This document shows, in pieces, positions 3,896-28,134 of a stretch of DNA of 64,000 nt. Under the pieces are notes generated by a model. That model saw nothing but the letters and a program-made list of their open reading frames with translations. It was not told the DNA's origin and made no database searches. How positions within the stretch are numbered: the stretch's first letter is position 1; each line of letters begins with the position of its first letter. A program made the position numbers and the translations under genes. The stretch lies in contig JAURAC010000006.1 in the NCBI GenBank assembly GCA_030586555.1, positions 16,794 to 80,793 on the forward strand, in the 5' to 3' direction. The stretch is from Candidatus Subterrananammoxibius californiae (GTDB taxonomy: Bacteria > Planctomycetota > Brocadiia > Brocadiales > Subterrananammoxibiaceae).

Positions 3896-3950
3896 GCGCA
3901 GGCTAAAGTTCGCCACGGCGAATCTGCCTCAGGCACGACCTACGACTACA
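3896..3950. repeat. REP-like hairpin (CGCAGGCTAAAGCCT.CG) interrupted by 30-bp element B (3909-3938)
   Basis: gcgcaggctaaag[ttcgccacggcgaatctgcctcaggcacga]cctacgactaca. Confidence 0.85.
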
Positions 3951-4005
3951 CGTTGTAATCCGTTATAACAATTTTCAATGTCTATTTTTGGGTAGGGGTT
4001 TTTGC

Positions 4006-4033
4006 TTGCAAATTGGACTTAATATGATATAAT
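4006..4033 (+). promoter_or_regulatory. Putative sigma70 promoter of the CBS/transporter operon
   Basis: TTGCAA-16 nt-TATAAT with extended -10 TG. Confidence 0.55.
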
Positions 4034-4089
4034 TCTCCCCAATTGTTTTTGGTAAACAGGCAGGTTCAAAATTTTAAGGAGACAAGGCG

Positions 4090-4557
4090 TTGAAGATAGA
4101 AAAATGTATGACATGGAATCCGTTTTTCTTGAAGTCTGGGACTCCTATAAGGGAGGCGGCAAAGGTTTTTATTGCGAGGAAGTTTGGCGCACTGCCAATA
4201 CTTGACAAGCGAGACAAACTAATTGGCATCGTTACCATCATGGATTTGCTTAAGGTGTTCCTGCCTGATTTTGTACCTTTAGTAGACATTGACTTCATAA
4301 AAGATTATGGTGCGCTTGAGATTCAGGAGAAGGACATAGAGAAAATCGAAAGCCTTGTGGTAGATGATATTATGACAAAAAAAGTTATTTCTGTGGATTC
4401 TGATTGTCCATTAACGAGGGCTATATCCCTGATGAAGAAACACGATTTCAGGCACCTGCCGGTAGTAAAGGAAGGGAAGCTTATAGGAATGGTGTCAAGT
4501 ACTGATATATGCCGCCGCTTCCTTGAAATCTGGGAAGCCAAAAACAAGAAAGATTGA
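4090..4557 (+). CDS. CBS domain pair protein
   Basis: Two CBS repeats (LPILD..LIGIVT; RHLPVV..GKLIGMVS). Confidence 0.9.
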   Translation: MKIEKCMTWNPFFLKSGTPIREAAKVFIARKFGALPILDKRDKLIGIVTIMDLLKVFLPDFVPLVDIDFIKDYGALEIQEKDIEKIESLVVDDIMTKKVISVDSDCPLTRAISLMKKHDFRHLPVVKEGKLIGMVSSTDICRRFLEIWEAKNKKD

Positions 4558-4666
4558 ATCAACGAACATGGCAGACAACAAGGTTTTACCTTCGGCTGAG
4601 CAGTTCGACCCTGAGCTCACTGCCGAAGGGCTCAGGTCGAAGCCTCATTGAGAAAGGATAAAGGAG

Positions 4667-6127
4667 ATGGAATTTATATCACAGATAGGTCTGGGTTTAA
4701 TTTTCATTGCCGTTATTGTGACGCTTATTTATGTGAAGGCGCATAGAACGCTTATTATCTTATTAGCAAGCGCACTTATGGGCGCTGCCGGCGCCGCCGC
4801 TGGAACACATTACGAAAAGGTTGAGCCAGAGCGCCTGCATCAATATATCGCAGGCTTCATCTTCATTGTAGTATTTGGCATAATTATATCAGAGAAAATA
4901 CACAGAACTATCATAGCCCTGGTAGGGGCGGTGATAATGGTCCTTGTAGGTATGTACCTTGGCTTCTATTCTCAGGGCGAGGCGCTAAAGGCGATAGATT
5001 TTAATACCATTGGTCTGCTAATGGGCATGATGATTATTGTAAACATGCTTAAGAGGACAGGCTTTTTTGAGTACCTCGCCACCATTGCGGCAAAAAAGAC
5101 AAAAGGAAGCCCCTGGCTGCTGATGCTAATTCTTGGTTCCATCACGACATTTGTCTCCATGGTAATTGATAACGTAACGACTGTGGTGTTGATGGTTCCC
5201 ATCACGATAATCGTTGCGGAGATTATTGGTATAAACCCCCTCCCTATCCTTTTAGCCGAAGCCCTGCTTTCAAATACCGGTGGCACTGCCACACTTATTG
5301 GCGACCCGCCAAACATAATGATTGGTACTGCCGCCAATTTAAGCTTTAACGATTTTCTTGTCAAGCTGTTTCCTATCGTGATGCTGATATGGGTTTCTTC
5401 AGTGGTGTTGTTAAAATTTGTCTTTCGGAAGGAGTTACGTGAGAAACCACGGAATATTGAAGCCCTTTTAAAATTAGACGAAAAGCAGGCTCTAAAAGAC
5501 CCAAAATCGTTAAAGAAGATATTGTTTTCGCTCGCCATTGTTTTAGTACTGTTTTTTATTCATCACATATTCCATTTTCAGAGTTCCTTTGTCGCCCTGA
5601 TTGGCGCAGCCATTTCATTTCTATGGGTTCGTCCCCACCCCGATGAAATCCTTAAGGAGGTTGAATGGACGGTACTGCTCTTCTTTGCCTGCCTCTTTGT
5701 TGTCGTGGGGGGTGTTGAAAAGACAGGGTTACTGGATGTTGCGGCGGAGCAGATTGGCCATCATGCTACAGGAAGCCTTATTGTAACGACATTAATAATT
5801 ATATGGGTCTCTGCATTTCTCTCTGCCATTATTGATAATATCCCGTTTACTATGGCAATGATTCCTGTTTTACAGCACCTTGAGACGCAGGGAATAAACA
5901 TCACCCCACTGTGGTGGGCGCTTGCCCTCGGTGTCGGTTTTGGCGGTAACGGGACGCCTATCGGCTCATCTGCTGGTGTTGTTACCATGGCAATGAGCGA
6001 ACGCACAAAATTCCCTATCACATTCAGGAATTGGTTCAAGTCAGGCTCTATTTTGATGATTGCCAACTGTATCTTTGCCTCAATACTTGTGGTTGTATTC
6101 TTTAAATTTCTTTCCACACCACGATGA
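4667..6127 (+). CDS. ArsB/NhaD (IT superfamily) ion transporter
   Basis: IDNVTTV, SNTGGTATLIGDPPNIMIG, IDNIPF motifs. Confidence 0.88.
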   Translation: MEFISQIGLGLIFIAVIVTLIYVKAHRTLIILLASALMGAAGAAAGTHYEKVEPERLHQYIAGFIFIVVFGIIISEKIHRTIIALVGAVIMVLVGMYLGFYSQGEALKAIDFNTIGLLMGMMIIVNMLKRTGFFEYLATIAAKKTKGSPWLLMLILGSITTFVSMVIDNVTTVVLMVPITIIVAEIIGINPLPILLAEALLSNTGGTATLIGDPPNIMIGTAANLSFNDFLVKLFPIVMLIWVSSVVLLKFVFRKELREKPRNIEALLKLDEKQALKDPKSLKKILFSLAIVLVLFFIHHIFHFQSSFVALIGAAISFLWVRPHPDEILKEVEWTVLLFFACLFVVVGGVEKTGLLDVAAEQIGHHATGSLIVTTLIIIWVSAFLSAIIDNIPFTMAMIPVLQHLETQGINITPLWWALALGVGFGGNGTPIGSSAGVVTMAMSERTKFPITFRNWFKSGSILMIANCIFASILVVVFFKFLSTPR

Positions 6128-7245
6128 AGGTCTTTCTTTCCTTAAGTTGTAGGGGCGTATTGTTCGCCATGGCGAATCTGCCTCAGGCACGACAATACGC
6201 CCCTACGGTTGTCATTCTGCTTTATATTCTATCCACCTCTGCCTTCGGTGAAACCCGGGTACTCTTTTCCCCCGAAGGTAGTATAAGGGACTGTATCCTT
6301 GAAAATATCGGCGGTTGCAGTTCATCCATTGAAATAGCGGTATACGACTTCGCCTCGGGCGATATTGCAGAAGCCCTCATTAACGCCAAAAATAGAGGCA
6401 TAAAAATAAGGGTTGTGCTGGACAAGAAGCAAGCAGAGAAGGAAGGCTCTTTATACGGCTTCCTTAAGGATGAGGGTTTTGACGTGCTATTGGTGAAGGG
6501 CAGGGTTGGCGGAAGTATGCACAACAGCTTTGTGATATTTGATAACAAACTCGTGTTGACAGGCTCATACAACTGGACGGAATATGCAGAAAAATTTAAC
6601 TATGAAAACGTAATCCTTACTGACGAAAAAGCGGTGGTTGAAATGTATCAAAACGAGTTTGAGAGATTGCGTGTGGGTACGGAGATAGTAGAAAGGAAAC
6701 AAGAGCCTGTTACCCAAATCCAGCCTCCTGCTCCCTTGAAAGCAGCGCCACAGGAAGAAATAAAGACAGAGGAGTTAAAAGCAGATACGGGAAAACAAGA
6801 CAGCAAGTCCTGGTTAGATTTCCTTTCAACATATCCTAAAAAACCTCCTCCTCCCTCACCAGCAGAAGGCGCCCCAGAAAAGGAATTTTTAGATATATCT
6901 TTTGAAGAGCTTGATAAGATTTTTGGTAATGAAAGTACGCTCTCAAAGGCTGAAAAAAACGAAAAATGGGAGCAGTATAAGGGAAAATACGTGAGATGGA
7001 CGGGCGAGGTTGTGTACAGGGGCATTGGCCGCACCGATTGGAACAGGATGGGGGTTAAGCATACAAATACGGATAAGTTAGATGTTGAACTGTGGTTCGA
7101 TTATAGAATGATGGATACGGTCTTAAGTATTAATAAAGGGAATATCATTACCTATACAGGCATGCTATCTATCAGGCGTGGTTACAATTCGCCTTATAGA
7201 ATCAAAAATGCCTGGATAGAGGAGTATCTCCATCAAAAACCGTAG
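6124..7245 (+). CDS. PLD-like nuclease-fold protein with variant HKD motif and C-terminal probable OB-fold
   Basis: FSP, IAVYDF, MHNSFVIFD..TGSYNWT..NYEN; Pro-rich linker. Confidence 0.75.
   Translation: MKVFLSLSCRGVLFAMANLPQARQYAPTVVILLYILSTSAFGETRVLFSPEGSIRDCILENIGGCSSSIEIAVYDFASGDIAEALINAKNRGIKIRVVLDKKQAEKEGSLYGFLKDEGFDVLLVKGRVGGSMHNSFVIFDNKLVLTGSYNWTEYAEKFNYENVILTDEKAVVEMYQNEFERLRVGTEIVERKQEPVTQIQPPAPLKAAPQEEIKTEELKADTGKQDSKSWLDFLSTYPKKPPPPSPAEGAPEKEFLDISFEELDKIFGNESTLSKAEKNEKWEQYKGKYVRWTGEVVYRGIGRTDWNRMGVKHTNTDKLDVELWFDYRMMDTVLSINKGNIITYTGMLSIRRGYNSPYRIKNAWIEEYLHQKP
6149..6206. repeat. Family-A palindrome carrying element B at its centre; read through in frame
   Basis: gtaggggcgtattg[30 bp]caatacgcccctac; identical to 9226-9283. 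Confidence 0.92.
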
Positions 7246-7393
7246 CAACAAGGAGATGAAAGTCAAATGGGGGGTAAAAAATGACCTTCATAACAGGCTT
7301 TCCTTTGGAGTTCATTGAACATGTCAATAAACGTACCCAGCTTCGGGTGAGCTGGACTCCAAAGCGAACCCTGTTAGTTTCCCCTTGTTGCTA
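7243..7393. other. ~150-nt multi-stem structure between convergent genes (candidate ncRNA or complex terminator)
   Basis: Perfect 11-bp closing stem tagcaacaagg/ccttgttgcta enclosing two further hairpins. Confidence 0.45.
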
Positions 7394-7420
7394 TTTCTTC
7401 AATAAACCCATGGCAAGATT

Positions 7421-7657
7421 TTAGTCGAACCCGCCAAACCATTCATCAAACTGGTAGTTCGTTGAGTACACCCTTGGTTCATAAAAGGCATTTTCGCCTG
7501 CCTGCGCAATCTTCAGGTTGCATCTCTTACATCTGCGGTTGTGAGGTCCTTTACTGAGAAATGCCTTTCCACACATAAGACATCTTCGCCTCTTAACCAT
7601 TGGTTTTCTTAATGAAAACCTCTTTTCTCTATATTCAATCGCATCACTGCGCCTCAT
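7421..7657 (-). CDS. Small basic zinc-ribbon protein
   Basis: CLMC..F.S.GPHNR.CKRC; ATG at 7657 preferred. Confidence 0.65.
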   Translation of the reverse strand: MRRSDAIEYREKRFSLRKPMVKRRRCLMCGKAFLSKGPHNRRCKRCNLKIAQAGENAFYEPRVYSTNYQFDEWFGGFD

Positions 7658-7672
7658 AGTCTTTCCCCTTTT

Positions 7673-7792
7673 GGTAGACAACAAACCCATGAATCACGTT
7701 CAGGGCATGTTTTATGTTCTTTTGGTCAAAGATTCGCCAAAGGCGAACACCAACGCGCCCACGAAGTGGGCACCCGAACCTCATTGTCTACC
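7673..7792. repeat. Family-E double-hairpin repeat (GGTAGACAAC...TTGTCTACC) expanded by nested hairpins
   Basis: Ends match 35650-35730 and 46525-46582; internal ttcgccaaaggcgaa and gcccacgaagtgggc hairpins. Confidence 0.7.
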
Positions 7793-7937
7793 ACCTGTTA
7801 TCATTTATCATTTTGTTGCTATTCCTGTTACTTCATATTTAGATGTAATATTTTGGTTAAAGATTCACAGATTAACCGTGAACCAAAGACGGAATTTGGC
7901 TTGACAGGTTTTTTGACATAAGTTATGTTATTTATGG

Positions 7938-8405
7938 ATGAAATTTTTTTTGAAGCCTTATTGTGCAATCTGGGCTATAATTATATTATCGGTAGCATGT
8001 TCAAGAAGCGTAACCTCTCCTACTTACAAGTGTAATGGGGTTATTGACGGCGATACCATAGTAGTGGAAGGGGTGGGCAAGGTGAGACTCCTCGGCGTAA
8101 ATGCTCCAGAGATAAAGGATACGCACAGGGGCGTTCAACGATTCGGTATGGAATGCACCATGTTCACTGAGCAAAATCTTCTGGGCAAGCAGGTAAGGCT
8201 TGAATACGATGAAATGAGGATGGATAGTTTTGGCAGAACCCTGGCATACGTTTATGTGGACGATACCCTTTTTAATGCTGAACTGGTAAAGCAGGGCTAT
8301 GCTTTAGTGTATGCTAAGTATCCTTTCAAGTACCTCGATGAATTTCGAAGGTTTGAAATGGATGCAAAAAAGAACGGCAGGGGGATATGGTCTTATCAAA
8401 GGTAG
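7938..8405 (+). CDS. Thermonuclease (SNase) family lipoprotein
   Basis: VIDGDTI, VRLLGVNAPE, DSFGRTLAYVY; lipobox-like SVAC. Confidence 0.92.
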   Translation: MKFFLKPYCAIWAIIILSVACSRSVTSPTYKCNGVIDGDTIVVEGVGKVRLLGVNAPEIKDTHRGVQRFGMECTMFTEQNLLGKQVRLEYDEMRMDSFGRTLAYVYVDDTLFNAELVKQGYALVYAKYPFKYLDEFRRFEMDAKKNGRGIWSYQR

Positions 8406-8413
8406 CACTAAGT

Positions 8414-9229
8414 ATGTTCGTAATTGAGGGTTATAAATTCCAGGCTTTCAATCGTAGAGATGGACACAGGGCAAATTATGCCATCTTAAGTAATGGTTTT
8501 GATGACCTCATGGGGATAAAGTATTCCCCGGATTTCGAATTTTCCCACGAATTTAATATCCTCTCGAAACTCAATCACGAACAAATTCCACACGCTTATG
8601 ACATGGGGCAAGGCGATTTGTACGAAGATGGCAGGTTCATAATATCCCAGAATTTCATGGTGCTTGAGCATTTCCCGGGTATTGATTTGGTCGAGTATTA
8701 CAAGGAAAAGAACTTACTCGATACCAGACAGATTGACAGCGTTATTAAGCATTTTATTACACTTTGCAACCCGCTTCAGTATCTTCACGAGAAGGGCTAT
8801 ATTCACGGTGATATAAAACCTGGGCATCTTCTTTTGAATAGGAGCACAGGCAGGGTATGCCTGATTGATTTCGAGTGCGCTGTAAAGCAAGGGGAGCTGA
8901 TTGGAGGCAGCACCCGTGGGTACGCATCCCCGGAACAGGAATTACAGATGTTAATAATAAAGGATTTTTTCAAATATTATAAACATCCAGAAAACGAGGC
9001 AAAGTTATTTATTGATGGTAGAACCGACTTATATTCTCTCGGAGTTGTTCTGTACCAAATACTAACGAACAAACTCTGGAGCGAGTCGCTGAGTCCCCCC
9101 AGCCATATTAATAAAGAAATTCCACAAAAGCTCGATAATATAGTGTTGGGGCTGTTAGAAACGAAAATTTCTGACAGAATAAGCTCCGCAGAAGAATTGA
9201 AAAGAGAATTAAATAGTGTTTTGCTGTAG
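8414..9229 (+). CDS. Ser/Thr protein kinase-like protein with variant motifs
   Basis: HGDIKPGH, LIDFE, YASPEQ, DLYSLGVVLY. Confidence 0.8.
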   Translation: MFVIEGYKFQAFNRRDGHRANYAILSNGFDDLMGIKYSPDFEFSHEFNILSKLNHEQIPHAYDMGQGDLYEDGRFIISQNFMVLEHFPGIDLVEYYKEKNLLDTRQIDSVIKHFITLCNPLQYLHEKGYIHGDIKPGHLLLNRSTGRVCLIDFECAVKQGELIGGSTRGYASPEQELQMLIIKDFFKYYKHPENEAKLFIDGRTDLYSLGVVLYQILTNKLWSESLSPPSHINKEIPQKLDNIVLGLLETKISDRISSAEELKRELNSVLL

Positions 9230-9283
9230 GGGCGTATTGTTCGCCATGGCGAATCTGCCTCAGGCACGACAATACGCCCCTAC
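9226..9283. repeat. Family-A palindrome plus element B; supplies the kinase TAG stop
   Basis: 58/58 identical to 6149-6206. Confidence 0.92.
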
Positions 9284-9353
9284 AATATTTTTGCCTTGAC
9301 ATATACATTGAAAATTCATTATATATAGGACAATTTGATGTGCAAAGCGGGGT

Positions 9354-9384
9354 GGGTGGCATGGACAAACTTGTTTGTCCGTGC
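9354..9384. repeat. Family-D REP-like hairpin (GGTGGCATGGACAAACTTGTTTGTCCGTGC)
   Basis: Same sequence at 15126-15156 and inverted at 26778-26808 and 35550-35580. Confidence 0.9.
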
Positions 9385-9410
9385 TTCCCCTGAGCAACAA
9401 GGTATTGAAA

Positions 9411-9830
9411 ATGTTTAGGTACGTTTCGATATACATACTATTTAGCGCCTTCTGCTGGCTTTCAAGCGCATTAGCCGTTACTTATGACCCGATTGAACCC
9501 GTAACGCTATTAAAGAGCGCTTCCGAACATGCAGGAAAGTTTGTAACGTTTCAGGCAAAATTTTTAGATACGTCACCCAAGACTAAGGAGCTTCTCAGCG
9601 CCCTTACCGGCGCAAGGGTTGATTTAAATAACTATGATAGCTTTGTGGTGTATGGAAATGGATTCGTTTTCCCGCGTATGCTTATATCAAAGCAAAAGGG
9701 GAGCGACATCCTTTATAAATTAAAATCTGATACCACTGTTGCTATTTACGGCGAAGTTTACAGGGTAAATATGGTTGGAGAGCCTATTATCATCGTTCAC
9801 AAAATAGAGAAGACTGGCGCCCTCCCATAG
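9411..9830 (+). CDS. Exported hypothetical protein, possible OB-fold
   Basis: Signal-peptide-like N-terminus; GKFVTF..VAIYGEV pattern. Confidence 0.6.
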   Translation: MFRYVSIYILFSAFCWLSSALAVTYDPIEPVTLLKSASEHAGKFVTFQAKFLDTSPKTKELLSALTGARVDLNNYDSFVVYGNGFVFPRMLISKQKGSDILYKLKSDTTVAIYGEVYRVNMVGEPIIIVHKIEKTGALP

Positions 9831-9880
9831 GGTTGAATGGCAGACAACTGACTTCATGTCCATTGAAATTGGAAAGGAAA

Positions 9881-9964
9881 GGTAGACAACGGTGTTTATC
9901 ATCGTTGAAATCAACGAACATAAAGTTGCAAACCCGCCGTTTTTGGGGTGGGTTCGTTGTCTAC
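9881..9964. repeat. Family-E repeat with nested hairpin insert
   Basis: ggtagacaacgg...tcgttgtctac with an extra aacccgcc..ggtgggtt hairpin. Confidence 0.75.
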
Positions 9965-9997
9965 TTCTGAAAATGTAAGCGAAAGGAGAGAAAGAGG

Positions 9998-10201
9998 ATG
10001 AAACTACTTCTGGGATTTATTTCTTTGGCAGCGTTAACGCTTATTTCATTTGTGTTAATAGTTTCAGGTTTTATTCGTTTGTTTAACGCCGCAAGGGAAG
10101 GCTTGGCGATAACGCCCGGTCATCTATTTATTTGTTTTGCCTCGTTTATATTAGGCTCGTTGATATTAGGTTTTGTCTTCGCTCAATCAGCAAAGGATTA
10201 A
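9998..10201 (+). CDS. Small two-TM membrane protein
   Basis: RBS (aaggag/gagg) and two hydrophobic segments. Confidence 0.6.
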   Translation: MKLLLGFISLAALTLISFVLIVSGFIRLFNAAREGLAITPGHLFICFASFILGSLILGFVFAQSAKD

Positions 10202-10238
10202 GGACCGAGCTTGCCTTATCTTTTTAAAAGAGTGATAA

Positions 10239-10616
10239 ATGGCTAAAGAAGCGCTGAAATACTTACAAAATGCAAAGGAGGTTTTAAGCAAGTCTCCTAT
10301 AGAGAATGACACCTATACAAAAATTAAGCCAGTAAGAGAAGCCTTTGGAACGGCGTATCTGGCAGTCTTAGAGGCTATTAACGAGGTGCTAATAGAAAGG
10401 GGACTTACTAAAAAAGAGCTCCCAAAATCTGTCGAAGAATATAGACAGGTATTACGAAAATATTTTGCCGTGCATAATGGGAAGCTTCTAAGGGAGTTTG
10501 AAAAACTTTATGATGTGCTTCACATAGCAGGTTATTACAGAGGACTTCTTTATGATGTGAATATAGTTAAAGATGCTTTTAAAGCTGCCAGGGCTTTTAT
10601 AGAGAAAATCAAGTAA
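10239..10616 (+). CDS. DUF5618-like (HEPN-related) protein
   Basis: EALKYLQNAKE.L...AYLAVLEA...YDVLHIAGYY pattern. Confidence 0.65.
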   Translation: MAKEALKYLQNAKEVLSKSPIENDTYTKIKPVREAFGTAYLAVLEAINEVLIERGLTKKELPKSVEEYRQVLRKYFAVHNGKLLREFEKLYDVLHIAGYYRGLLYDVNIVKDAFKAARAFIEKIK

Positions 10617-10626
10617 GAGTAAATTT

Positions 10627-10827
10627 TTACCGGCATAACATTGCCACTAAATAGGTTGCCTCCTTAATTATACCTGCCCCTAAGGCGATAATAAATGCAA
10701 CGGCTACATATTTTATAACCGCCTTGCGTCTGGATGCCACTGAGATTCTCTTGCGTATATTAGCAAGGCATCGGTCTTCATTCCAATTTGCTTTCCGACG
10801 AGACGAAGGATTTACCTGACGCATCAT
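10627..10827 (-). CDS. Hypothetical small protein with C-terminal TM helix
   Basis: RBS gaaggag before ATG; basic region followed by a hydrophobic helix. Confidence 0.4.
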   Translation of the reverse strand: MMRQVNPSSRRKANWNEDRCLANIRKRISVASRRKAVIKYVAVAFIIALGAGIIKEATYLVAMLCR

Positions 10828-11226
10828 GTCTCCTTCAAAAATAGGGATGTCACTGAAGAATATACTTACCTCCTCTAAAATATGAAGCAAGTAATGTGCC
10901 AAAAGGTATATCATTTGCCTGTAAATACTTACGACTTTGCAAATTGCTTCTGTTGTACATATAGCGAAAAAAATAATACAAAGTTGTACTTACAAGGGTT
11001 AAAAGCGTCCGCCTCAGGCGGACTCATAGATGACAAAAAAGGGCTTTTTCAGGTGAAGAAAATTTTCTTGTTTTTATCGTTCTAATGGACTAAACTTAAC
11101 GCATATTCGTAGCGAATGACGGCTTGAAAGGAGAAATTTTTCTTTAAGGTGAAGGAGGTGATGTCCCTTAATGTATTGTAAGGTTGTTTGATGGTATTTT
11201 TCAGACGAAAACGGAGGTACTTAAAT

Positions 11227-11598
11227 ATGAAGCTTATAAATCGAATTTTTGCGCCAATTTTGTTTGTAACCTTCCTGGTTCCTTTTACTGCCTTCTGGCA
11301 GGAAGAAGTTTTAGCCTCTTCCGGGACATGTGATGAGGTTCTTGATATAGACATTACCGTTGTAGGAACAGGAAAGAATAAACAGCAAGCATTGGAGGAC
11401 TTAGACAATAAAATAGCGGACGAAGCCAATGCTATGTGTTATGACCCTGCCTCTTGTCCTGGTGCGGAGTGCGAAGCCGTATCCATCACAACAACAACCC
11501 CTAAGTGTAAGTATAGCCGCCGTGATAGAAGTTGGCGCTGTACCGCTAAGATAAAAAGGGTTGAGTGCGGTTGCGTGGAAGGTGATGTGCATCATTAG
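11227..11598 (+). CDS. Secreted cysteine-rich protein (8 Cys)
   Basis: GGAGG RBS, signal peptide, eight Cys in the mature part. Confidence 0.7.
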   Translation: MKLINRIFAPILFVTFLVPFTAFWQEEVLASSGTCDEVLDIDITVVGTGKNKQQALEDLDNKIADEANAMCYDPASCPGAECEAVSITTTTPKCKYSRRDRSWRCTAKIKRVECGCVEGDVHH

Positions 11599-11611
11599 CG
11601 GGAGGGGCGGT

Positions 11612-11662: not shown

Positions 11663-11674
11663 TAGGGTGATGCC

Positions 11675-14169: not shown

Positions 14170-15315
14170 TCATGTTGGTTGGGGCTTGCTTACTTTAGCA
14201 TTACTAAAAGTTGCCATCTGGGTAAGGATTTTTACTCCCGCCTCAACGAGACTCATCCCCAATGCAGCGCCAGTCCCCTCGCCGAGTCGAAGGTTGAGGT
14301 CAAGAAGGGGCTTCTTTCCGAGGTACTCAAGCACGAATCCATGTCCTTTTTCAACCGATTTATGAGAGGCTATAAGATAATTGTTTACCTTCGGAGATAG
14401 CCTGCATGCTATAAGAGCACCCACAGTGGAAATGAACCCATCAAGTAATACTGGAATCCTGTGCCGTGCCGCAGCAAGGCATAACCCTGCAATGGCACCA
14501 ATTTCAAACCCACCGACCTTTGCAAGGACATCTACGGGGTCTGAAACATCGGGCTTGTTGACTTTAAGAACCTGCTTGATTGTTGCGATTTTCTTTTTAA
14601 GCGCAATATCATCCAATCCCGTTCCCCTTCCCGTAACCTCTTCAATGTCTGTCCCTGTTAGCACTGCAAGGATTGCACTGCTTGGAGTGGTGTTGCCGAT
14701 GCCCATATCACCGGTACCTGCAATGTCTATTCCATCGGGCAATTCCTCTTCAAAAACCTCTATGCCTCCCTCGATGGCACGCATTGCCTCACCCCTCGAC
14801 ATAGCAGGACCCTTAAGCATATTCTTTGTCCCGTAACCAATCTTCTTGATGCAAAATCGAGGACTCGTACTATTGTTATACCCCCCCTTATCCCCCCCTT
14901 GCGAAGGGGGGGATTGAGGAGGGGTTATATTGCCGAAATCCGATGCCACACCACAATCAACCACAATAACCCTTGCCCCCACATGCCTTGCCAGCACATT
15001 AATTGCCGCCCCGCCATCGATGAAATTCAGAACCATCTGCCTTGTTACCTCCTGAGGAAATAGGCTCACACCTTCCTCCACAATCCCATGGTCACCTGCC
15101 ATAGTAAATATTACCTTGTGCATTTGGGTGGCATGGACAAACTTGTTTGTCCGTGCAGTACCCCTTATAGAGGCATAGACTATAGCAAGCTCCTCAAGCC
15201 TTCCGAGACTTTTCCTCGGGATGGCAAGCTCATCCAGCCGCGCTCGAATAGCACCATCCGCATCTATCTTAATCTCTTCTATATTTTCAATGGTTTTGTC
15301 TAAAAGTGTTGCCAT
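14170..15315 (-). CDS. cobT: Nicotinate-nucleotide-dimethylbenzimidazole phosphoribosyltransferase with two in-frame repeat inserts
   Basis: SLGRLE, AGDHG, GDMGIGNTT, LRLGEGTGA. Confidence 0.95.
   Translation of the reverse strand: MATLLDKTIENIEEIKIDADGAIRARLDELAIPRKSLGRLEELAIVYASIRGTARTNKFVHATQMHKVIFTMAGDHGIVEEGVSLFPQEVTRQMVLNFIDGGAAINVLARHVGARVIVVDCGVASDFGNITPPQSPPSQGGDKGGYNNSTSPRFCIKKIGYGTKNMLKGPAMSRGEAMRAIEGGIEVFEEELPDGIDIAGTGDMGIGNTTPSSAILAVLTGTDIEEVTGRGTGLDDIALKKKIATIKQVLKVNKPDVSDPVDVLAKVGGFEIGAIAGLCLAAARHRIPVLLDGFISTVGALIACRLSPKVNNYLIASHKSVEKGHGFVLEYLGKKPLLDLNLRLGEGTGAALGMSLVEAGVKILTQMATFSNAKVSKPQPT
14881..14926. repeat. Family-F palindrome in frame in cobT
   Basis: Encodes TPPQSPPSQGGDKGG. 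Confidence 0.85.
15126..15156. repeat. Family-D hairpin in frame in cobT
   Basis: Encodes ARTNKFVHAT; exact copy of intergenic 9354-9384. Confidence 0.92.
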
Positions 15316-20439: not shown

Positions 20440-20446
20440 AAACCAA

Positions 20447-20503
20447 GCGATGAGCAAAGGGCAATGAGTAATACTCATTGCTTTGCACTCATTGCTCATT
20501 ACT
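20447..20503. repeat. Inverted heptamer array between leuS and holA
   Basis: gcaatgagtaatactcattgc core with flanking units. Confidence 0.7.
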
Positions 20504-20509
20504 TTAATT

Positions 20510-21514
20510 ATGGACTTTGAACATTTCAAAAGGGTAATTTCTAAGGGTCAGGTTGCCCCACTGTATGTGCTTCACGGCGAGGAAGAATTCTTTATCCGTG
20601 AGTCTCTGTCACTGCTGAAATCAATGTTCTTGAAGGGTTCGGACCCTTCCACGTCCCTTACTGAATTTGACGGCATGGATGCTACAGACCCGCCTCAGGC
20701 TGGCATCTTTAATGAATTGCGGACAACACCACTCCTTGGAGCAGCAGGCAAGCGCATGGTCATAGTTGAGAATGCAGACGATTTTATCGGAAAATACAAA
20801 AATCTTCTGGAGAAATATCTTGAGACGCATGCGCCGTATAGCTGTCTGGTTCTAATATGTAAGAAGTTTGACAAAAGAACAACCCTTTCTGCAAAGATTA
20901 ATCGAATCGGAGGTGAGATTGAGTGCAAAAGACTGAACGAATTTGAACTTTCTTTATGGATTCAACAAAGGGCAAGACATTACGGTAAAACGGTAACACC
21001 ACAAGCTATACAGTCCCTTATGGAAGCCATAGGAAATAAACCTGCGCTAATTGATAAGCACCTTGAAAAGCTATCCATATACCTTGACAAAAGACCAACA
21101 ATACAGGAAGACGATGTTGAAAACCTTGTAAGGGTTAACAGGACCCGTACCGTATTTGAACTAACAGAGGCGATTGCACAAAAGAATACAGAAAAGGCAT
21201 TAAAAGTATTGAATCAGCTTTTAGTCGCAGGCGAGGAGGGCGTCAAAATAATAAGTATGCTTACATGGCAAATAAGACGCTTGTGGCAGGCAAAGCACAT
21301 TTTAAGCACAGGGAAAAAGGCAGAGACGGTTGCTTCGGAACTGAAGATTAATCCCTATTATCTAAAGGATTTTATTAAACAAACCGGGCATTTTACCGAA
21401 GTATCCTTACAAAAAAAGTACGAACACATCCTCCTTGCAGATTTCCAGAAAAAGACAAGCGCAATGGATGAGCAATTGCTCTTGGAATGCCTCGTATATA
21501 AATTGTGCGGGTAA
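20510..21514 (+). CDS. holA: DNA polymerase III delta subunit
   Basis: YVLHGEEEF, LEKLSIY, VFELTEAI; follows leuS. Confidence 0.9.
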   Translation: MDFEHFKRVISKGQVAPLYVLHGEEEFFIRESLSLLKSMFLKGSDPSTSLTEFDGMDATDPPQAGIFNELRTTPLLGAAGKRMVIVENADDFIGKYKNLLEKYLETHAPYSCLVLICKKFDKRTTLSAKINRIGGEIECKRLNEFELSLWIQQRARHYGKTVTPQAIQSLMEAIGNKPALIDKHLEKLSIYLDKRPTIQEDDVENLVRVNRTRTVFELTEAIAQKNTEKALKVLNQLLVAGEEGVKIISMLTWQIRRLWQAKHILSTGKKAETVASELKINPYYLKDFIKQTGHFTEVSLQKKYEHILLADFQKKTSAMDEQLLLECLVYKLCG

Positions 21515-21544
21515 GAAAAAAATAATATAAGCTTTTAAGGTTCG

Positions 21545-23152
21545 TTATCTCTTTTTATACACAAAAAGCTTATTATAAAATGTACAGTTGTCATCACGAA
21601 ATGTGTAATTATAGTAAAATTTATAAAAGGGCTTTCTCAAATCTTTTACTTTCCTTGAAAAGAAACGGGTATCAAGTCTGTGTTTAAGAATTTCGCCGAT
21701 TTCGGTATCATGACCATAAAGTAACCATATTTTTGCATTATTATTTTTAATTAAAATGTCATTTATGTAGCTTACAACGCTGTCCGCATCACTTTCCAGT
21801 ATCTGTTTCTGGCTTAACATTTTATTTACATCTCGCCAGCCAGGATGTAAGGCTAATTCTTGAGGGAAAGAAATCTTAATAAAAGCCTTATCTGACTTCA
21901 TTAAAGACAAATAATAATCAATGGGTCGGAGACTCAAACTGGTATGTATGAGAATATCATTATTATCAGCATGTTTTATTAAATATTCAGTTGTTGATTT
22001 ATCAGTACATTGTTTAGGAGTAAATCTGTAACCTACAAAACTGATAGAGGTTTCAATTAGTAAAATATAGCAGCAGGCAATGATAATACGACTATTTCCA
22101 AACCTGCTCAACAATGACCCGACAAGCATAACAAAAGGAGGGAGCGCTATTATAGTATATCTCGTCGGCACATAAATTGGCTTTGCCTGAGAAATAATTA
22201 GTGGAACTAATAATGAAACGGATAGAAATATCAAAAACACAGGGTTTTGCTTCTGAATGATAAACTCTTTTAAGGCAGATATATTCCAGAATCTTATTTT
22301 AAACCCTACAACTTTAAACACTATAAGCACTAAGAACGCAACATAAACAAGCACCGCCCGTTTCCAGTTCACGCCTCCACAAAAATCAAATAATGTAGAT
22401 ACCAACTCACGAATACCGGGTTTTACTATCCAGGAGACATGAGTCCTGTTAGCTTGTGATAAAAAGACTGGTATCCATAATATCAAAAAGGGCGCAACTG
22501 ATATAAAAATTGCTACTGAAAACTTTTTAAATGACGACCTGGGAAATAGTAGAAGATGGGAAACTATTTGTGAAAAAATCATAAAAAAGAACCAGTAATG
22601 GGTAAAAATACCAATCATATTAACAATAATGTATAAAGCAAGGTCCTTTTTTGAATTATTTTTAAGAAGAAATAACCTTAAAAAGAATAGCGTTGAAAGT
22701 ATTACCAATAACCCTAAAAGCGAATACATCCTTGCGTTTTGAGCGTGTTTAATAGCGAGAGGGCTTAACATATACAAAAACGAACACAATAAGCCTGTTT
22801 TCCTGTCGTTATAAATAGATTTACCTAAAACGTAAACGGCAACCAAACTAAGCATATAAAATATGGCAGATGGACTCCTAACCGCAAGTTCGCTTATTCC
22901 GAATATCCGTATCCATACGGCAAGAAAAAGAAAATACAAAGGCGGGCTCGATTCCGTTAGCTTCACTTCACGAATAATACCTTCCCAATCATGACCTGCC
23001 TCAAAAACACTACAAGCTTCGTCAAACCAGATAGACCTATTAATACCAAAAAAGGAAAAAAGGGCTATTGCCAATACCGACATAATGGTTAGAGGTAACA
23101 GAAATATCCACTGATTATTTTTATTTTCTATGATAGGGATATCCTTTCCCAT
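21545..23152 (-). CDS. GT39/ArnT-like membrane glycosyltransferase, paralog 1
   Basis: SIWFDE, PPLY, AQNARMY; multiple TM helices. Confidence 0.85.
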   Translation of the reverse strand: MGKDIPIIENKNNQWIFLLPLTIMSVLAIALFSFFGINRSIWFDEACSVFEAGHDWEGIIREVKLTESSPPLYFLFLAVWIRIFGISELAVRSPSAIFYMLSLVAVYVLGKSIYNDRKTGLLCSFLYMLSPLAIKHAQNARMYSLLGLLVILSTLFFLRLFLLKNNSKKDLALYIIVNMIGIFTHYWFFFMIFSQIVSHLLLFPRSSFKKFSVAIFISVAPFLILWIPVFLSQANRTHVSWIVKPGIRELVSTLFDFCGGVNWKRAVLVYVAFLVLIVFKVVGFKIRFWNISALKEFIIQKQNPVFLIFLSVSLLVPLIISQAKPIYVPTRYTIIALPPFVMLVGSLLSRFGNSRIIIACCYILLIETSISFVGYRFTPKQCTDKSTTEYLIKHADNNDILIHTSLSLRPIDYYLSLMKSDKAFIKISFPQELALHPGWRDVNKMLSQKQILESDADSVVSYINDILIKNNNAKIWLLYGHDTEIGEILKHRLDTRFFSRKVKDLRKPFYKFYYNYTFRDDNCTFYNKLFVYKKR

Positions 23153-23274
23153 AAAAGTAATGTCCTATAACCCCTGAAAATAGTATTGAAGGAGGAACAA
23201 AACCATCAAAGGCGCGGAGGAGCAAGATGCCTCCATAAATTATATTCAGCAACGAGGTATCGTCTGCGGAGTTT

Positions 23275-23503
23275 TATTGTAAGTAATTTATCAACTTAGG
23301 CACAGGGTGAAAGGCAGAAACGGTTGCTTCGGAACTGAAAATTAATCCCTACTATCTAAGAGATTTTATTAAACAAACCGAGCACTTTACCGAGGCATCC
23401 TTACAAAAAAAGTACGAACATATCCTCCTTGCAGATTTCCAGAGAAAGACAAATGCAATGGATGAGCGATTACTCTTAGATTACCTTGTGTATAAATTGT
23501 GTA
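23275..23503. pseudogene. Duplication junction: accD 3'-end remnant (23275-23295, -) abutting a holA 3'-end remnant (23296-23503, +)
   Basis: Matches 25180-25201 and 21302-~21507 respectively. Confidence 0.88.
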
Positions 23504-23536
23504 CAGGTCAATTGCGATCCCGAGATGCAGCCAAAT

Positions 23537-25120
23537 CTATTTTTGATACACAAAAATTTTATTATAATATGTATGACCCTCAAAAGAAGTATAATTATTA
23601 TTAAATGGGTGAAATAATTTTCGAAGATTTATTTCTCTACTTAGAAAGAAACGTGTATCAAGCCTATTTTTAAGAATATTACCGACTTCGGGATTACAAC
23701 CATAAAGTAACCATATTTTTGTATCATTGTTTTTAATTGTAACTTTATTTTTGATTATAAGGGTGTCCAAGTAACGCACAAAATTGTCCACTTTGCTTTC
23801 CAGCACATGTTTTCTCTTGTCGGTGTCCGATAGAAAAGAAAGCGTAGTAAAAGTGTTGTTCGGCTTCATCAGGCGTAGATAATAGTCAATGCCTGCCCGG
23901 CTCCAACCAGTAAAAATGATAATATCGTTATCATGGGCATGTGTTATTAAATATTTGGTTGTTGATTTATCCGAATAATATTGCTTGGGTGTAAATCCGC
24001 AACTTACAAAACTAATTGTAGCTTCTATAAGTAAAATATAACAAAAGGCTAATACGACGTGTTTATTCCCGAATCTACTTAATAATGACCCAATAACCAC
24101 AACGAAAGGAGGGAGTGCAATTATAGTATATCTCGTTGGCACATAAATGGGCTTTACCTGGGAAATAATAAATGGAACTAATAATGAAATGGCAAAAAAT
24201 ATCAAGAATGCAAGGTTTTGTTTTTGAATGATAAACTCTTTTAAGGTAGAAATATTCCAGAATCTTATTTTAAAACCTTCAACTTTAAATACTATAAGCG
24301 CCAAAAATGCGGCATAAACAAGCGCCGCTCGTATCGCACTGTTGCCCCCATAAAACCTTCGAAAAGTAGATACTAAAGCATGAAAACCTGGCTTACTTAT
24401 CCAGGAATAAACGCCACGTTCTACCTGTGATAAAAAGATAGGTGACCATAATACCAAAAAGGGCATAAGTGATAAGAAAATTGCAATGCAGAACGTTTTA
24501 AGTGACGTTCTGGAAAACAAAAGAATATAGGAAACTATTTGCGATAAAATCACAAAAAAGAAATAGAAATGCGTAAAAGTGCCAATGATATTAACAATAA
24601 TGTATAAAACAAGGTCTTTTTTTGAATTGGTCTTGATAAGAAATAACCTCGAAAAGAATAGCGTTGAAAGTATTGCTAATAACCCTAAGAGAGAATACGG
24701 TCTTGCGTTTTGTGCATGTATAATAGCCAGCGGGCTTAACATATAAAGAAACGAACACAATAAGCCTGTACGCTTGTCATTATAAATGGATTTGCCTAAA
24801 ACATAAATGGCAACCAGACTGAGTATATAAAATATACTGGATGGGCTCCTGACTGCAAGCTCGCTCATTCCAAATGCCCGTGTCCATAAGGCAAGAAAAA
24901 GATGATACAAAGGCGGGTGGCTAATCTTTTTCACTGCGTTAATAATGCCTTCGTGGTCATGACTTGTTAAAAGAACACTATGGGCTTCATCAAACCAAAT
25001 AGACCTATCAATATTAAAAAAGGAAAATAGGGCTACTGCCAATACCGACATAATGATTAGAGGTAATAGAAATACCCTCGAATTATTTTTATTTTCTATC
25101 ACAGGGATATCCTTCCCCAT
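23537..25120 (-). CDS. GT39/ArnT-like membrane glycosyltransferase, paralog 2
   Basis: Colinear with paralog 1 (MGKDIP..SIWFDE..HPPLY). Confidence 0.85.
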   Translation of the reverse strand: MGKDIPVIENKNNSRVFLLPLIIMSVLAVALFSFFNIDRSIWFDEAHSVLLTSHDHEGIINAVKKISHPPLYHLFLALWTRAFGMSELAVRSPSSIFYILSLVAIYVLGKSIYNDKRTGLLCSFLYMLSPLAIIHAQNARPYSLLGLLAILSTLFFSRLFLIKTNSKKDLVLYIIVNIIGTFTHFYFFFVILSQIVSYILLFSRTSLKTFCIAIFLSLMPFLVLWSPIFLSQVERGVYSWISKPGFHALVSTFRRFYGGNSAIRAALVYAAFLALIVFKVEGFKIRFWNISTLKEFIIQKQNLAFLIFFAISLLVPFIISQVKPIYVPTRYTIIALPPFVVVIGSLLSRFGNKHVVLAFCYILLIEATISFVSCGFTPKQYYSDKSTTKYLITHAHDNDIIIFTGWSRAGIDYYLRLMKPNNTFTTLSFLSDTDKRKHVLESKVDNFVRYLDTLIIKNKVTIKNNDTKIWLLYGCNPEVGNILKNRLDTRFFLSREINLRKLFHPFNNNYTSFEGHTYYNKIFVYQK

Positions 25121-25992: not shown

Positions 25993-26675
25993 TATGGATC
26001 CAGTCCAAAAAGCTTTAACCCATGCTCGGCGCCGAGCCGTAAGTCCTGCACGGCTTGATAGGGGTCGTCTGCCTTAAAGATTGCAGTAGCCGCCGCAAAG
26101 ACATTTGCGCCGTTGCTGGCAACTTGCTCTATTGTGTCCTTTGTAATGCCGCCATCAACCTTGATGTCTAACCCTTCAGGGGCTATCATTCTAAGTTCTT
26201 TAATTTTTGGCACAGCATTCCAGATAATGGATTGCCCATCGTATCCGGGGTTTACAGTCATGACAAGTATCATATCCACAAGCCCTATAATTTCAGTTAC
26301 GGATTGTACTGCCGTGACAGGGTTAAGGGCAACCGCAGGCTTTAATCCTGCTTTTCTTATCAAAGCAATAAGCTCCTTTGGCTCATTGGTTGTCTCGATA
26401 TGGAATGTGAAGAAGTCCCCCTTTCTTGCCGCATCGGCAAAAGGGACGAGAAATTGAGCAGGGTTTTGAACCATGAGATGGATGTCAATGGGGACTCGGA
26501 TTACCTTCTTCAGTCCCTTAACAATAAATGGGCCCATTGTAAGGTTAGGAACAAAATGTCCATCCATTACGTCAACGTGAATGAAGTCTACCCCTGCATC
26601 TTCAACACTTTTTATATCTTCACCGAAGCGCGCCGGATTGGCTGCCAGGATTGATGCGGAGATTTTGACTTTCAA
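25992..26675 (-). CDS. rpe: Ribulose-phosphate 3-epimerase
   Basis: [26 protein letters not shown] start after GGAGG preferred. Confidence 0.95.
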
Positions 26676-26720
26676 AGTAATGCTGCCTCCCATACGAGTA
26701 AAACGATAGCCCCTACAAAC

Positions 26721-26848
26721 GGGTGGCATGGACAATCCGCTCAGGCGGATTGTCCGTGTTCTTCCTGAAAACAAGAGGCACGGACAAACAAGTTTGTCCA
26801 TGCCACCCCAATGTGGAGGAATCAACGAGGTAAAACCTCGTTGTCTAC
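26721..26848. repeat. Mosaic of an inverted family-D pair (one with family-C loop) and a half family-E unit
   Basis: ggacaa[tccgctcaggcgga]ttgtcc; gcacggacaaacaagtttgtccatgccaccc; caacgaggtaaaacctcgttgtctac. Confidence 0.85.
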
Positions 26849-26852
26849 TTTT

Positions 26853-28046
26853 TTACTCTTTTTTATCGGTAAGCGCTGCTATTCCTGGAAGTTCTTTACC
26901 TTCCAGAAGTTTCAGGAATGCACCGCCACCCGTTGATATGAAGGATACATTGTGTGATTCTCCTGCGCGCAAAAAAGCGAGGTCGGTATCCCCTCCACCC
27001 ACGATTGTCAAGGCATGGGAACTGGCAATTGCCTCAACCATTGCGAAGGTTCCCCTGCTAAAGGCATCAATTTCAAAGACGCCCATCGGCCCATTCCATA
27101 TCACGGTTTTTGCATTCTGTAAGACTTCCGAGAATAATCTCGTGCTGGCAGGACCAATGTCAAGGGCTATCCAGTTGGGGGGAATTTCTTGAAAGGCTAC
27201 GACCTTAGTTTCAGCCTTGCCGTTAAAGGATTCAGCAACTACAAAATCTACAGGAAGATAAAACTTTGTGCCGTTAAGATGAACATTATCAAGAATACTC
27301 GAGACTTCGTCAATCATACTGTCTTCTACGAGTGATTTACCTATATCATTGCCAAGCGCCTTTAAGAATGTAAATGCCATTGCACCCCCTATAATTATCT
27401 TATCCACCTTTCCCACAAGGTTTTCTATGACATGTATTTTATCCGAGACCTTCGCCCCACCCAGCATTGCAACGACAGGCCTCATAGGATTGGTAATAGC
27501 CTTCTCAAAGTAATCGAGTTCTTTTTTTATCAGAAACCCTGCGACTGCGACCGGCACGAACTTATTTATGCCAACCATCGAGGCATGCGCCCTGTGGCAA
27601 TTCCCGAAGGCATCCTGAACAAAGACATCGGCAAGACTTGCCAGCGCCTTTGCAAATTCGGGGTCATTTTTTTCCTCCCCTTCATGGAATCGTAGATTTT
27701 CCAGCATTATCACATCGCCGGGTTTCATCTGGTCAATAAGGTTTTTGACCTTTTCACCTATACAGTCATCTGCAAGTATAACCTCCTTATCGAGCAGCCT
27801 TTTGAGCCTCTTTACAACAGGTCTCAAGCTAAGATTAGGAACAACCTTTCCTTTAGGCCTTCCGAGATGAGAGGCTATAATAATCCTTGCATCTTCATCC
27901 AGCAGAAAATTAATCGTAGGTAATGCCGCCCTGATGCGTGCATCATCTACAATGTTGCCTTGCTCGTCCAAGGGGACGTTAAAATCTACCCTGACAAGCA
28001 CCTTCTTTTGCCTTAATGGAACTTCTGTAAGGAAAAGTTTATTCAA
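26853..28046 (-). CDS. pgk: Phosphoglycerate kinase
   Basis: RVDFNVP, SHLGRP, LENLRF, GGAKVSDK, STGGGA; TTG start with GGAGG RBS. Confidence 0.97.
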   Translation of the reverse strand: MNKLFLTEVPLRQKKVLVRVDFNVPLDEQGNIVDDARIRAALPTINFLLDEDARIIIASHLGRPKGKVVPNLSLRPVVKRLKRLLDKEVILADDCIGEKVKNLIDQMKPGDVIMLENLRFHEGEEKNDPEFAKALASLADVFVQDAFGNCHRAHASMVGINKFVPVAVAGFLIKKELDYFEKAITNPMRPVVAMLGGAKVSDKIHVIENLVGKVDKIIIGGAMAFTFLKALGNDIGKSLVEDSMIDEVSSILDNVHLNGTKFYLPVDFVVAESFNGKAETKVVAFQEIPPNWIALDIGPASTRLFSEVLQNAKTVIWNGPMGVFEIDAFSRGTFAMVEAIASSHALTIVGGGDTDLAFLRAGESHNVSFISTGGGAFLKLLEGKELPGIAALTDKKE

Positions 28047-28074
28047 TGTCCCCTCCCATTTCCAAAAAAGCACT

Positions 28075-28134
28075 GGTGGCATGGACAAACTTGTTCGCCA
28101 AGGCGAATCTGCCTCAGGCACGATTTGTCCGTGC
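28075..28134. repeat. Family-D hairpin interrupted by element B (28094-28123)
   Basis: ggacaaacttg[ttcgccaaggcgaatctgcctcaggcacga]tttgtccgtgc. Confidence 0.92.

Follow-up and report, generated by a model that had tools for sequence, protein, structure and literature searches.

A fixed unit of 30 nucleotides (nt), consisting of two adjacent hairpins and devoid of genes, is dispersed through the genome of Candidatus Subterrananammoxibius californiae (3.34 Mb in 150 contigs, 42% G+C) and has been inserted exactly, without duplication of its target, into conserved genes as well as into larger palindromic repeats. The unit, herein called the 30-mer, was noticed in a 64,000-nt stretch of this genome (the window; contig C128:16794-80793), in which a first-pass annotation made from the letters alone had described four copies. 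The reading favored here, with a probability of roughly 0.55, is that the 30-mer is a mobile micro-element that is aimed at a short target sequence and partly hitch-hikes in repetitive extragenic palindromes (REPs); two of its parts, namely the fixed unit and its derived, exact insertion, are much firmer than the reading as a whole.

What the first-pass annotation had observed in the window was confirmed by a pattern search, by inspection of the hosts, and by checks of the empty forms. Four matches to TTCGCCANGGCGAATCTGCCTCAGGCACGA occur in the 64,000 nt, each on the + strand, and none in 100 shuffles; the four copies (Table 1) differ, as described, at a single loop base, position 8 (C/T/T/A). 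Copy 1 occupies the 3' loop edge of a hairpin at 3897-3949 (cgcaggctaaag^cctacgactac, where ^ marks the junction), a degenerate version of the CGCAGGCTAAAG^CCTGCGGCTAC repeat. Copies 2 and 3 share the host GTAGGGGCGTATTG^CAATACGCCCCTAC, the former at the exact center of a GTAG...CTAC "double-foot" REP palindrome (6149-6206) and the latter at the center of a second such palindrome (9226-9283), while copy 4, located between the PGK and GAPDH genes, is found in a family-D hairpin (GGACAAA/TTTGTCC, 28075-28135; GGCATGGACAAACTTG^TTTGTCCGTGC), at the 3' edge of its CTTG loop. Paralogous empty forms of the GTAG palindrome (host A) and of the family-D hairpin (host D) are present in the window at the places that the annotation had given for them (Table 1). 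Its further statement that the boundaries can be read directly also holds: they are fixed by host A, for which a shift of one base either way fails to restore the common empty form, and the reading frames of two interrupted genes, a LeuC-like gene and RmlD, agree with them.

Table 1. Positions of the 30-mer copies, of the empty hosts, and of the long forms; positions refer to the window unless a contig is named.
Feature	Position	Strand	Detail
30-mer copy 1	3909..3938	+	loop 1 = AC
30-mer copy 2	6163..6192	+	loop 1 = AT
30-mer copy 3	9240..9269	+	loop 1 = AT
30-mer copy 4	28094..28123	+	loop 1 = AA
Empty paralogous host A, GTAGGGGCGTATTGCAATACGCCCCTAC	53186..53213	.	GTAG palindrome
Empty paralogous host D, ggcatggacaaacttgtttgtccgtgc	9354..9384	+	family-D hairpin
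Empty paralogous host D	15126..15156	+	family-D hairpin
78-nt long form (L170)	C41:30317-30394		30-mer + 48-nt module
78-nt long form (L169)	C107:53975-54052		30-mer + 48-nt module

Searches of the whole genome recovered 42 copies when up to four mismatches were allowed and 55 copies with a relaxed pattern that admits a larger loop 1 (44 of 30 nt, three of 31 nt, one of 35 nt, and seven of 36 nt), against no match to a reversed-pattern control; all 44 of the 30-nt copies have identical boundaries. The unit can be written 5'-TTCGCC-NN-GGCGAA-TC-TGCC-TNN-GGCA-Y-GA-3', and its two similar hairpins take up the entire element, hairpin 1 being predicted in DNA to have a 5-bp stem with a 4-nt loop and hairpin 2 a 4-bp stem with a 3-nt loop. 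The free energy of this fold (-5.8 kcal/mol, z about -1.5) is not exceptional alone, and the 30-mer folds in RNA as well as in DNA; a filled REP, for its part, is predicted to form a perfect three-way junction in DNA, wherein T15-A30 and C16-G29 extend hairpin 2 and base 28 is bulged. In 85 distinct sequences free variation is limited to the loops (positions 7, 8, 22, and 23) and to one base outside them, position 28, which is C or T; the unpaired T15, C16, and T21 show little or no variation. Sequence conservation across phyla thus extends to the stems and the unpaired linker bases, with the loops free to vary. Pairing is observed in 93.8% of cells for the proposed structure versus 20-45% for slid controls, and eight cells in this genome are changed on both sides of a pair, compared with 1.6 +/- 1.2 in shuffles (none of 500 shuffles reaches eight). 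In the relatives, the double change TCCGCC...GGCGGA appears in 23 of the 150 matches listed and either change alone in none of those listed; several copies carry CGCC...GGCG in hairpin 2. Rfam 15 returned no relevant match, at E values up to 5, for window positions 3700-9600, which include three of the copies.

Hairpin 1 is always accompanied by hairpin 2 in the genome, with the exception of the two 78-nt long forms (Table 1), in which a 48-nt module of other hairpins has been inserted after position 16 of the 30-mer; this co-occurrence, together with the long forms, indicates that the 30-mer is both a unit and itself a host for other modules. Parts of the 48-nt module are found alone in the relatives G036 and G012, and a copy in the relative G034 holds a reversed partial 30-mer. 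Head-to-tail junctions (GGCAYGA-TTCGCC) were also sought in the genome, and none was convincing.

The first-pass annotation had proposed a non-autonomous micro-element inserted precisely and without target duplication, and this is borne out by exact gaps in the homologues of two interrupted genes. For the LeuC-like gene, which belongs to the aconitase family, 29 of 29 orthologues (from 40 relatives) are gapped at exactly ten residues, VRQGESASGT, and the orthologous empty DNA (e.g., "gcacat gctggt") matches the rebuilt target catg^ctgg. Likewise, a search of 5.8 billion proteins gave six nearest homologues of RmlD, 66-84% identical overall, and in each of them precisely VRHGESASGA is missing; homologues in the PDB show the same gaps. 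No target duplication was found at the LeuC, RmlD, or REP sites, and no deletion either. From the LeuC-like, RmlD, and PDB comparisons it follows that the filled state is derived, that the insert is exactly 30 nt long, and that nothing was duplicated or lost; the converse, that filled forms are ancestral and empty ones arose by deletion, is contradicted by the orthologous empty sites. Compared with its nearest homologues, RmlD (L138, C44:62102-63142) also has three other inserts specific to its lineage, which measure about 21, 10, and 7 residues; one of them (IASSAS...) is partly common to one homologue.

A length of ten codons had been expected to preserve the reading frame, and at least 12 copies do lie within Pfam-annotated genes or domains, the orthologues of the LeuC-like gene and the nearest homologues of RmlD being without exactly ten codons. 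The usual 30-mer sequence is open in five of its six reading frames, and many copies sit in long open frames; of 18 element-bearing frames checked against Pfam, 16 had domain matches, and in no fewer than 12 the 30-mer is situated within an annotated domain or between two. The affected genes encode, in addition to the LeuC-like protein and RmlD, HflX (interrupted by a 36-nt variant), KsgA, glycosyltransferases, TPR proteins, a methyl-accepting chemotaxis protein, and a histidine kinase, and two paralogous Oxidored_FMN/Pyr_redox genes carry the 30-mer at different places. The in-gene copies are found in both orientations and represent three reading frames.

The contexts of the 55 genomic copies comprise GTAG...CTAC palindromes (18 copies), a GATTG^CTTCGCCTTCGGCTCGCAATGAC repeat (six), the GGACAAA/TTTGTCC hairpin (four), CGCAGGCTAAAG^CCTGCGG (two), and unique sites elsewhere (25). 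Independent contexts amount to 36 distinct flank pairs outside REP-A hosts in this genome and, among the matches listed (as for all counts from other genomes in this paragraph), 62 elsewhere. The insertion sites have a short motif in common, W-W-G^C-Y-K-G, whose right half, CYKG, is the more widely shared. The unique sites of this genome have A/T at -3 in 25/25, G at -1 in 22/25, C at +1 in 21/25, and G at +4 in 23/25; the other genomes have C at +1 in 48/62, C/T at +2 in 52/62, G/T at +3 in 49/62, and G at +4 in 45/62, but G at -1 in only 34/62. Because CYKG is present at the orthologous empty sites (as Ala-Gly codons), it is part of the target and not of the element; on the complementary strand it reads CMRG^, such that insertion is 3' of CMRG. 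The rule that insertion always follows a G, stated from the window, is correct for the four copies there and for 52 of the 55 in the genome, but it weakens to 76/108 in the other genomes.

Of the interpretation offered in the first-pass annotation, the precise non-autonomous micro-element is supported, but targeting by hairpin structure rather than sequence is not. Every copy in the window does lie at or beside a hairpin loop; genome-wide, however, the junction falls in an apical loop closed by a stem of 4 bp or more for just 21 of the 55 copies, 17 of which belong to the 18 GTAG palindromes of host A. The unique sites show no enrichment at apices (2/25, versus 197/3000, or 6.6%, of random TG^C control sites), and the two flanks, set against shuffled pairs, show no excess of complementarity beyond the GTAG palindromes (36 genome pairs and 62 elsewhere), whereas WWG^CYKG recurs.

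Occupancy of the repeats that serve as hosts is uneven. The "tattg|caata" REPs (A1) are filled in 13 cases and empty in 33, the GTAGAGACGCAATG REPs (A2) in six and nine, the "cgttg|caacg" REPs, which have the same TTG^CAA center, in one and 27, and the family-D hairpins with a CTTG loop in four and 86 (Fisher tests of A1 occupancy: p = 0.012 versus cgttg REPs and p = 1.6e-4 versus family D). The composite GGGGCGTATTG-30mer-CAATACGCCCC is the commonest context in other Brocadiales families too, among the matches listed, and the REP-A center (CAAT) is a poor fit to the CYKG motif. In view of this uneven occupancy, the recurring GGGGCGTATTG^CAATACGCCCC composite, and the poor fit, most REP-borne copies look like descendants of a few insertions co-amplified with the REP rather than repeated structure-guided hits. 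Once a single REP had been hit, the composite of REP and 30-mer could have been amplified by the REP's own system and passed on as one piece, a second route of spread that would make the 30-mer look hairpin-targeted.

The hosts are themselves abundant. There are 189 GTAGGGGC...GCCCCTAC double-foot palindromes in the genome (e.g., at window 53186-53213), which fall into at least seven inner-stem subfamilies, and many of the longer ones contain further nested hairpins. Family D (GGACAAA-loop-TTTGTCC) has 412 strand-wise matches, or about 206 sites, 86 of them with the CTTG loop. A 15-nt palindrome, TCCGCCTSAGGCGGA, far outnumbers the 30-mer, with 392 strand-wise matches (about 196 sites genome-wide) when its close variants are included; it is similar to hairpin 1 as found in the 31-nt variants, is also present within GTAG REPs, and is exemplified at about 1190-1215 of L015, upstream of a Y1 transposase gene. 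The loop of one family-D hairpin downstream of the Y1 gene L014 is occupied by another guest, of about 33 nt (ccacggcttcgctaaagcttcagcgatggcgag), from which it appears that other micro-elements use the same hosts.

The 30-mer is distributed patchily among close relatives: of 41 genomes from the order, 16 carry it, the source genome included, with 8/13 carriers in family f2, 7/13 in f3, 0/2 in f4, and 0/12 in f5, and a backwards control pattern had no match in the 41 genomes. A cross-species scan with the exact pattern, using one genome per species, found at least 107 stretches. The matches listed bear labels from the Planctomycetota (Brocadiales, Scalindua, other Planctomycetota, Phycisphaerales, and Sedimentisphaerales of the Phycisphaerae) and from elsewhere (Thermodesulfobacteriota/"Deltaproteobacteria", a "Proteobacteria" metagenome-assembled genome (MAG), Bacteroidota, Cytophagia, Maribacter, Ignavibacteriae, and Chlorobiaceae), and several of them are on contigs of 50-280 kb. 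Neighboring host modules are lineage-specific (e.g., ...GAAG^CCGGAAACNGTAGTTTCCGG in Thermodesulfobacteriota MAGs), which argues against mis-binning in those MAGs. An apparent archaeal carrier (L022, on a contig binned as Hydrothermarchaeales) was set aside as probably a mis-binned bacterial contig, its flanks being nearly those of a Scalinduaceae locus (L045). No exact match to the 30-mer was found in 2.9 million viral contigs.

With respect to the enzyme, the genome contains seven Y1 matches, one of the IS200 type (L011) and six resembling REP-associated tyrosine transposases (RAYTs; L012-L017), four of the latter exceeding the NCBIfam cut-off. The contig of the window contains no Y1 gene, in keeping with the earlier statement that no candidate enzyme is in the window. 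The Y1 genes appear to have cognate repeats of their own, as L014 is followed by family-D hairpins and L017 is preceded by a GTAG palindrome. L014 (C150:44396-45016) has three family-D copies just downstream, two of them inverted, in the region C150:43900-44700, and looks like a pair of a RAYT and its REPIN (a REP doublet forming a hairpin); its nearest orthologues, at 67-73% identity, are in family f5. L016 (C132:4565-5062) has 92%-identical copies in the f5 genomes G035 and G038, compared with 70-80% identity for the LeuC-like gene, a sequence difference that suggests recent transfer. The IS200-type tnpA L011 (C136:1402-1854) is bordered on both sides by mirror-image hairpin pairs (GCCCCAAAGGGGC and CCAGGGGTAAAGCCCCTGG types), an arrangement that is more like a REPtron than an insertion sequence (IS).

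Several results weigh against the reading of the 30-mer as a mobile, sequence-aimed micro-element and are gathered here. The first-pass annotation had looked to Y1 or RAYT genes flanked by these hairpins, yet neither the 30-mer nor its halves occur within about 1.5 kb of any of the seven Y1 genes; the same is true of the 25 Y1 matches found in five distant carriers, whose best identity to the Y1 proteins of this genome is 45%. In a phyletic comparison of six Y1 queries across the 41 genomes (L013 being represented only by L012, to which it is 38% similar), none of the Y1 types follows the 30-mer: the L011, L012, and L016 types are absent from all 13 f2 genomes, eight of which are carriers, the L014 and L015 types are in 2/13, and the L017 type is in 13/15 carriers but also in 18/25 non-carriers. 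No full-length element with 30-mer ends was found in the genome, and left-only and right-only halves never pair on one contig, although a repeated IS might be missed in a draft assembly. Whereas IS200/IS605 elements are strongly orientation-biased, the orientation of the 30-mer relative to local GC skew is unbiased (29 to 26), in a test weakened by the draft state of the genome and by REP-borne copies that may blur the signal. Unlike those of IS608, the hairpins of the 30-mer stand at the extreme ends, with no linker or guide segments, and, unlike in IS200/IS605 elements generally, both flanks are constrained. Covariation within the genome is modest, many stem positions never varying. Lastly, there is no sign of present-day activity: none of the joints listed from groundwater metagenome contigs (Logan, four runs; window 3600-23599) skips the 30-mer, but these contigs stop at the repeats and so are uninformative on filled/empty polymorphism. 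Contigs of the two related groundwater populations X7 and X8 skip 36 intergenic bases at window 10201-10236, an ordinary indel and not a hairpin element. Beyond the Y1 genes, four IS110-type genes have no 30-mer nearby, and the single reverse transcriptase (RT) domain, which lies within a 1660-aa open frame, and the single TnpB-like match show no evident link to the 30-mer.

Clean insertion without duplication beside a four-base motif, similar terminal hairpins, and conserved unpaired bases nonetheless point to a site-specific strand-transfer enzyme acting in trans. Such an enzyme would be sequence-specific, would bind both hairpins, cut at their feet, and join the 30-mer to a target beside the CYKG motif (in effect, "insert 3' of CMRG"). 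In a single-stranded form the stems may stack, with the 5' T and the 3' A abutting like a nicked 30-nt dumbbell; this dumbbell, like the three-way junction, is a geometry suggested by the predicted fold. Among known chemistries the single-strand HUH class (IS200/IS605-like) would be the best fit, and the first-pass annotation had likewise envisaged HUH/RAYT chemistry in trans; insertion without duplication beside a short motif accords with that proposal, but the lack of a flanking Y1 gene, of a covarying Y1 type, and of strand bias does not. As the cognate gene, the parent element, and the strand bias were all tested for and not found, assignment to the HUH class is only tentative. A similarly tentative proposal is that the 30-mer is the minimal substrate of an unrecognized strand-transfer enzyme outside the Y1/RAYT types found here, by which the stacked hairpins would be excised as a 30-nt dumbbell circle and inserted at G^CYKG.

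Other explanations were weighed as well. The model of the first-pass annotation, in which the 30-mer is aimed by structure at hairpin loops and moved in trans by a RAYT/IS200-type Y1 HUH transposase, accounts for the position of all four window copies and of 17 of the 18 REP-A copies at a hairpin apex, for the lack of target duplication, and for a genome with seven Y1 genes, six of them RAYT-like, and its hosts correspond to the GTAG double-foot REPs that parts of one report place in the RAYT world (PMC6006769). It is nevertheless unlikely, as apical loops hold no more of the unique sites than of the control sites and the flanks are not complementary; moreover, some 86 identical family-D CTTG loops accompany only four copies, the cgttg REPs have one copy in 28, and the Y1 genes neither are flanked by the hairpins nor track the 30-mer, which shows no strand bias. 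Spread through RNA, whereby a transcribed copy would be reverse-transcribed or reverse-spliced into new sites, was reportedly proposed by Elhai and colleagues in 2008 for the small dispersed repeats (SDRs) of cyanobacteria. The equally good RNA fold of the 30-mer, the excess of sense copies within genes (12 to 5), and the RT domain could be cited for it, but the 12:5 ratio is near the 3:2 expected from stop-free frames alone, the lone RT domain is buried in the 1660-aa frame, and there are no ribozyme-sized partner, no Rfam match, and no poly-A or priming signatures, so this route is improbable.

A process that needs no dedicated enzyme, namely replication template switching or gene conversion by way of short microhomologies (..TG / C..) at stalled hairpins, would have many substrates in a genome packed with nested hairpin modules, and the left flank (TTG/ATG) and first right-hand base (C) of the insertion sites do match REP-A, the commonest donor context. 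Ragged ends would then be expected, however, whereas the boundaries are identical in 44/44 of the 30-nt copies and across phyla; the REP-A donor flank (CAAT) lacks the conserved G at +4, and the unpaired linker bases do not vary from phylum to phylum, which leaves this explanation with a slim chance. Slimmer by far is the prospect that the 30-mer is an immobile functional motif, for instance a double hairpin that binds a protein or has a regulatory role and is kept by selection. Its strong conservation across phyla, unpaired bases included, would suit such a role, but it interrupts conserved enzymes as a lineage-specific ten-codon insert, both orientations and three reading frames are represented, its presence in 16/41 genomes is patchy, and the orthologous empty sites largely refute the idea. 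A mobile micro-element with a sequence target, partly carried along in REPs, therefore remains the preferred reading.

The 30-mer belongs with the known very small hairpin mobile repeats; a literature search with sequence fragments found no description of it, supplements and some journals lying outside that search. SDR1-8 of the Nostocaceae, reported by Elhai and colleagues in 2008, are said to be gene-less repeats of 21-27 nt that form hairpins with compensatory changes, that occur within other repeats and nested in each other, and that were put forward as the smallest mobile elements, moved by an unknown enzyme. Like the SDRs, the 30-mer is very short, gene-less, dispersed, hairpin-forming, and found inside other repeats; it is set apart from them, as they are described, by its length of 30 nt, by a single sequence common to several phyla, by in-frame insertion in genes with orthologous empty sites, and by a non-photosynthetic planctomycete host (with no psbA match and only two HIP1 sites). 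The repeats do have a Nostoc-like look, but a cyanobacterial host is rejected on these two counts and by the Brocadiales relatives. According to a passage in one source, SDR-like repeats were not found outside the Nostocaceae (PMC5861425), and the SDRs of that family are also cited in a portion of another (PMC3116915).

Sections of two further papers describe REPs inserted within palindromes and open reading frames (Di Nocera et al. 2013, PMC3733652) and double-foot REPs with in-frame REP inserts (Quentin et al. 2018, PMC6006769). The 30-mer resembles the GTAG/CGTC REPs with their RAYT (TnpAREP) in being a small dispersed hairpin element, sometimes within palindromes or in frame, for which an HUH enzyme is suspected. 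The REP foot (GTAG or CGTC), however, is on neither strand of its consensus (GTGG arises by chance only when loop 1 is AC); its copies do not flank RAYT (tnpAREP) genes as in a REPtron; and its hairpins are tandem and different (TTCGCC/GGCGAA versus TCTGCC/GGCAYGA) rather than an inverted REP pair as in a REPIN. In this genome, moreover, the 30-mer is the guest and the REPs are the hosts. It also departs from classical miniature inverted-repeat transposable elements (MITEs), as its ends (TTCGCC... and ...GGCAYGA) are not inverted repeats and no target duplication is made.

Elements of the IS200/IS605 family insert beside a short specific sequence and duplicate no target. General statements on the family and on its gene-less derivatives, the palindrome-associated transposable elements (PATEs), are found in parts of PMC6006769. 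The 30-mer shares with them insertion by a short motif without duplication (specifically, 3' of a tetranucleotide, CMRG^ on the other strand) and similar hairpins at both ends, but no full-length IS bearing tnpA/tnpB was found with its ends, and L011 has other hairpins. Apart from insertion without duplication beside a motif, then, the 30-mer lacks the tested features of REPs and REPINs, of classical MITEs, and of IS200/IS605 derivatives.

Rickettsia palindromic elements (RPEs) are about 100-150 bp long and confined to Rickettsia. They are described, in a section of PMC3733652, as palindromic repeats situated in frame in genes that still function. The 30-mer is likewise in frame in genes; unlike RPEs, it is far shorter and not confined to Rickettsia. 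The double-hairpin elements of fungal mitochondrial DNA, which Paquin and colleagues reportedly described in 2000 as mobile and located in genes and spacers, also consist of two adjacent hairpins, but their setting is an organelle and their sequence is different.

The 30-mer ranks among the smallest mobile elements seen, and, if it is a bona fide transposable unit, 30 nt would be a very low bound, with two hairpins and nothing else needed. If the proposal of an unrecognized enzyme is true, a transposon family smaller than any characterized would have crossed at least four bacterial phyla and could decorate essential proteins with a ten-residue peptide. Fixed ends, a readable motif, orthologous empty sites, and carriers and non-carriers within one order provide a clean system for finding the enzyme, and the case illustrates that tiny elements riding in REPs can mislead the inference of structure-directed targeting. 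For the uncultured anammox-related bacteria themselves, the consequence is a set of in-frame, ten-residue inserts in conserved enzymes (the LeuC-like protein, RmlD, HflX, and KsgA); in annotation, such inserts explain odd lineage-specific loops as well as many metagenome contig breaks.

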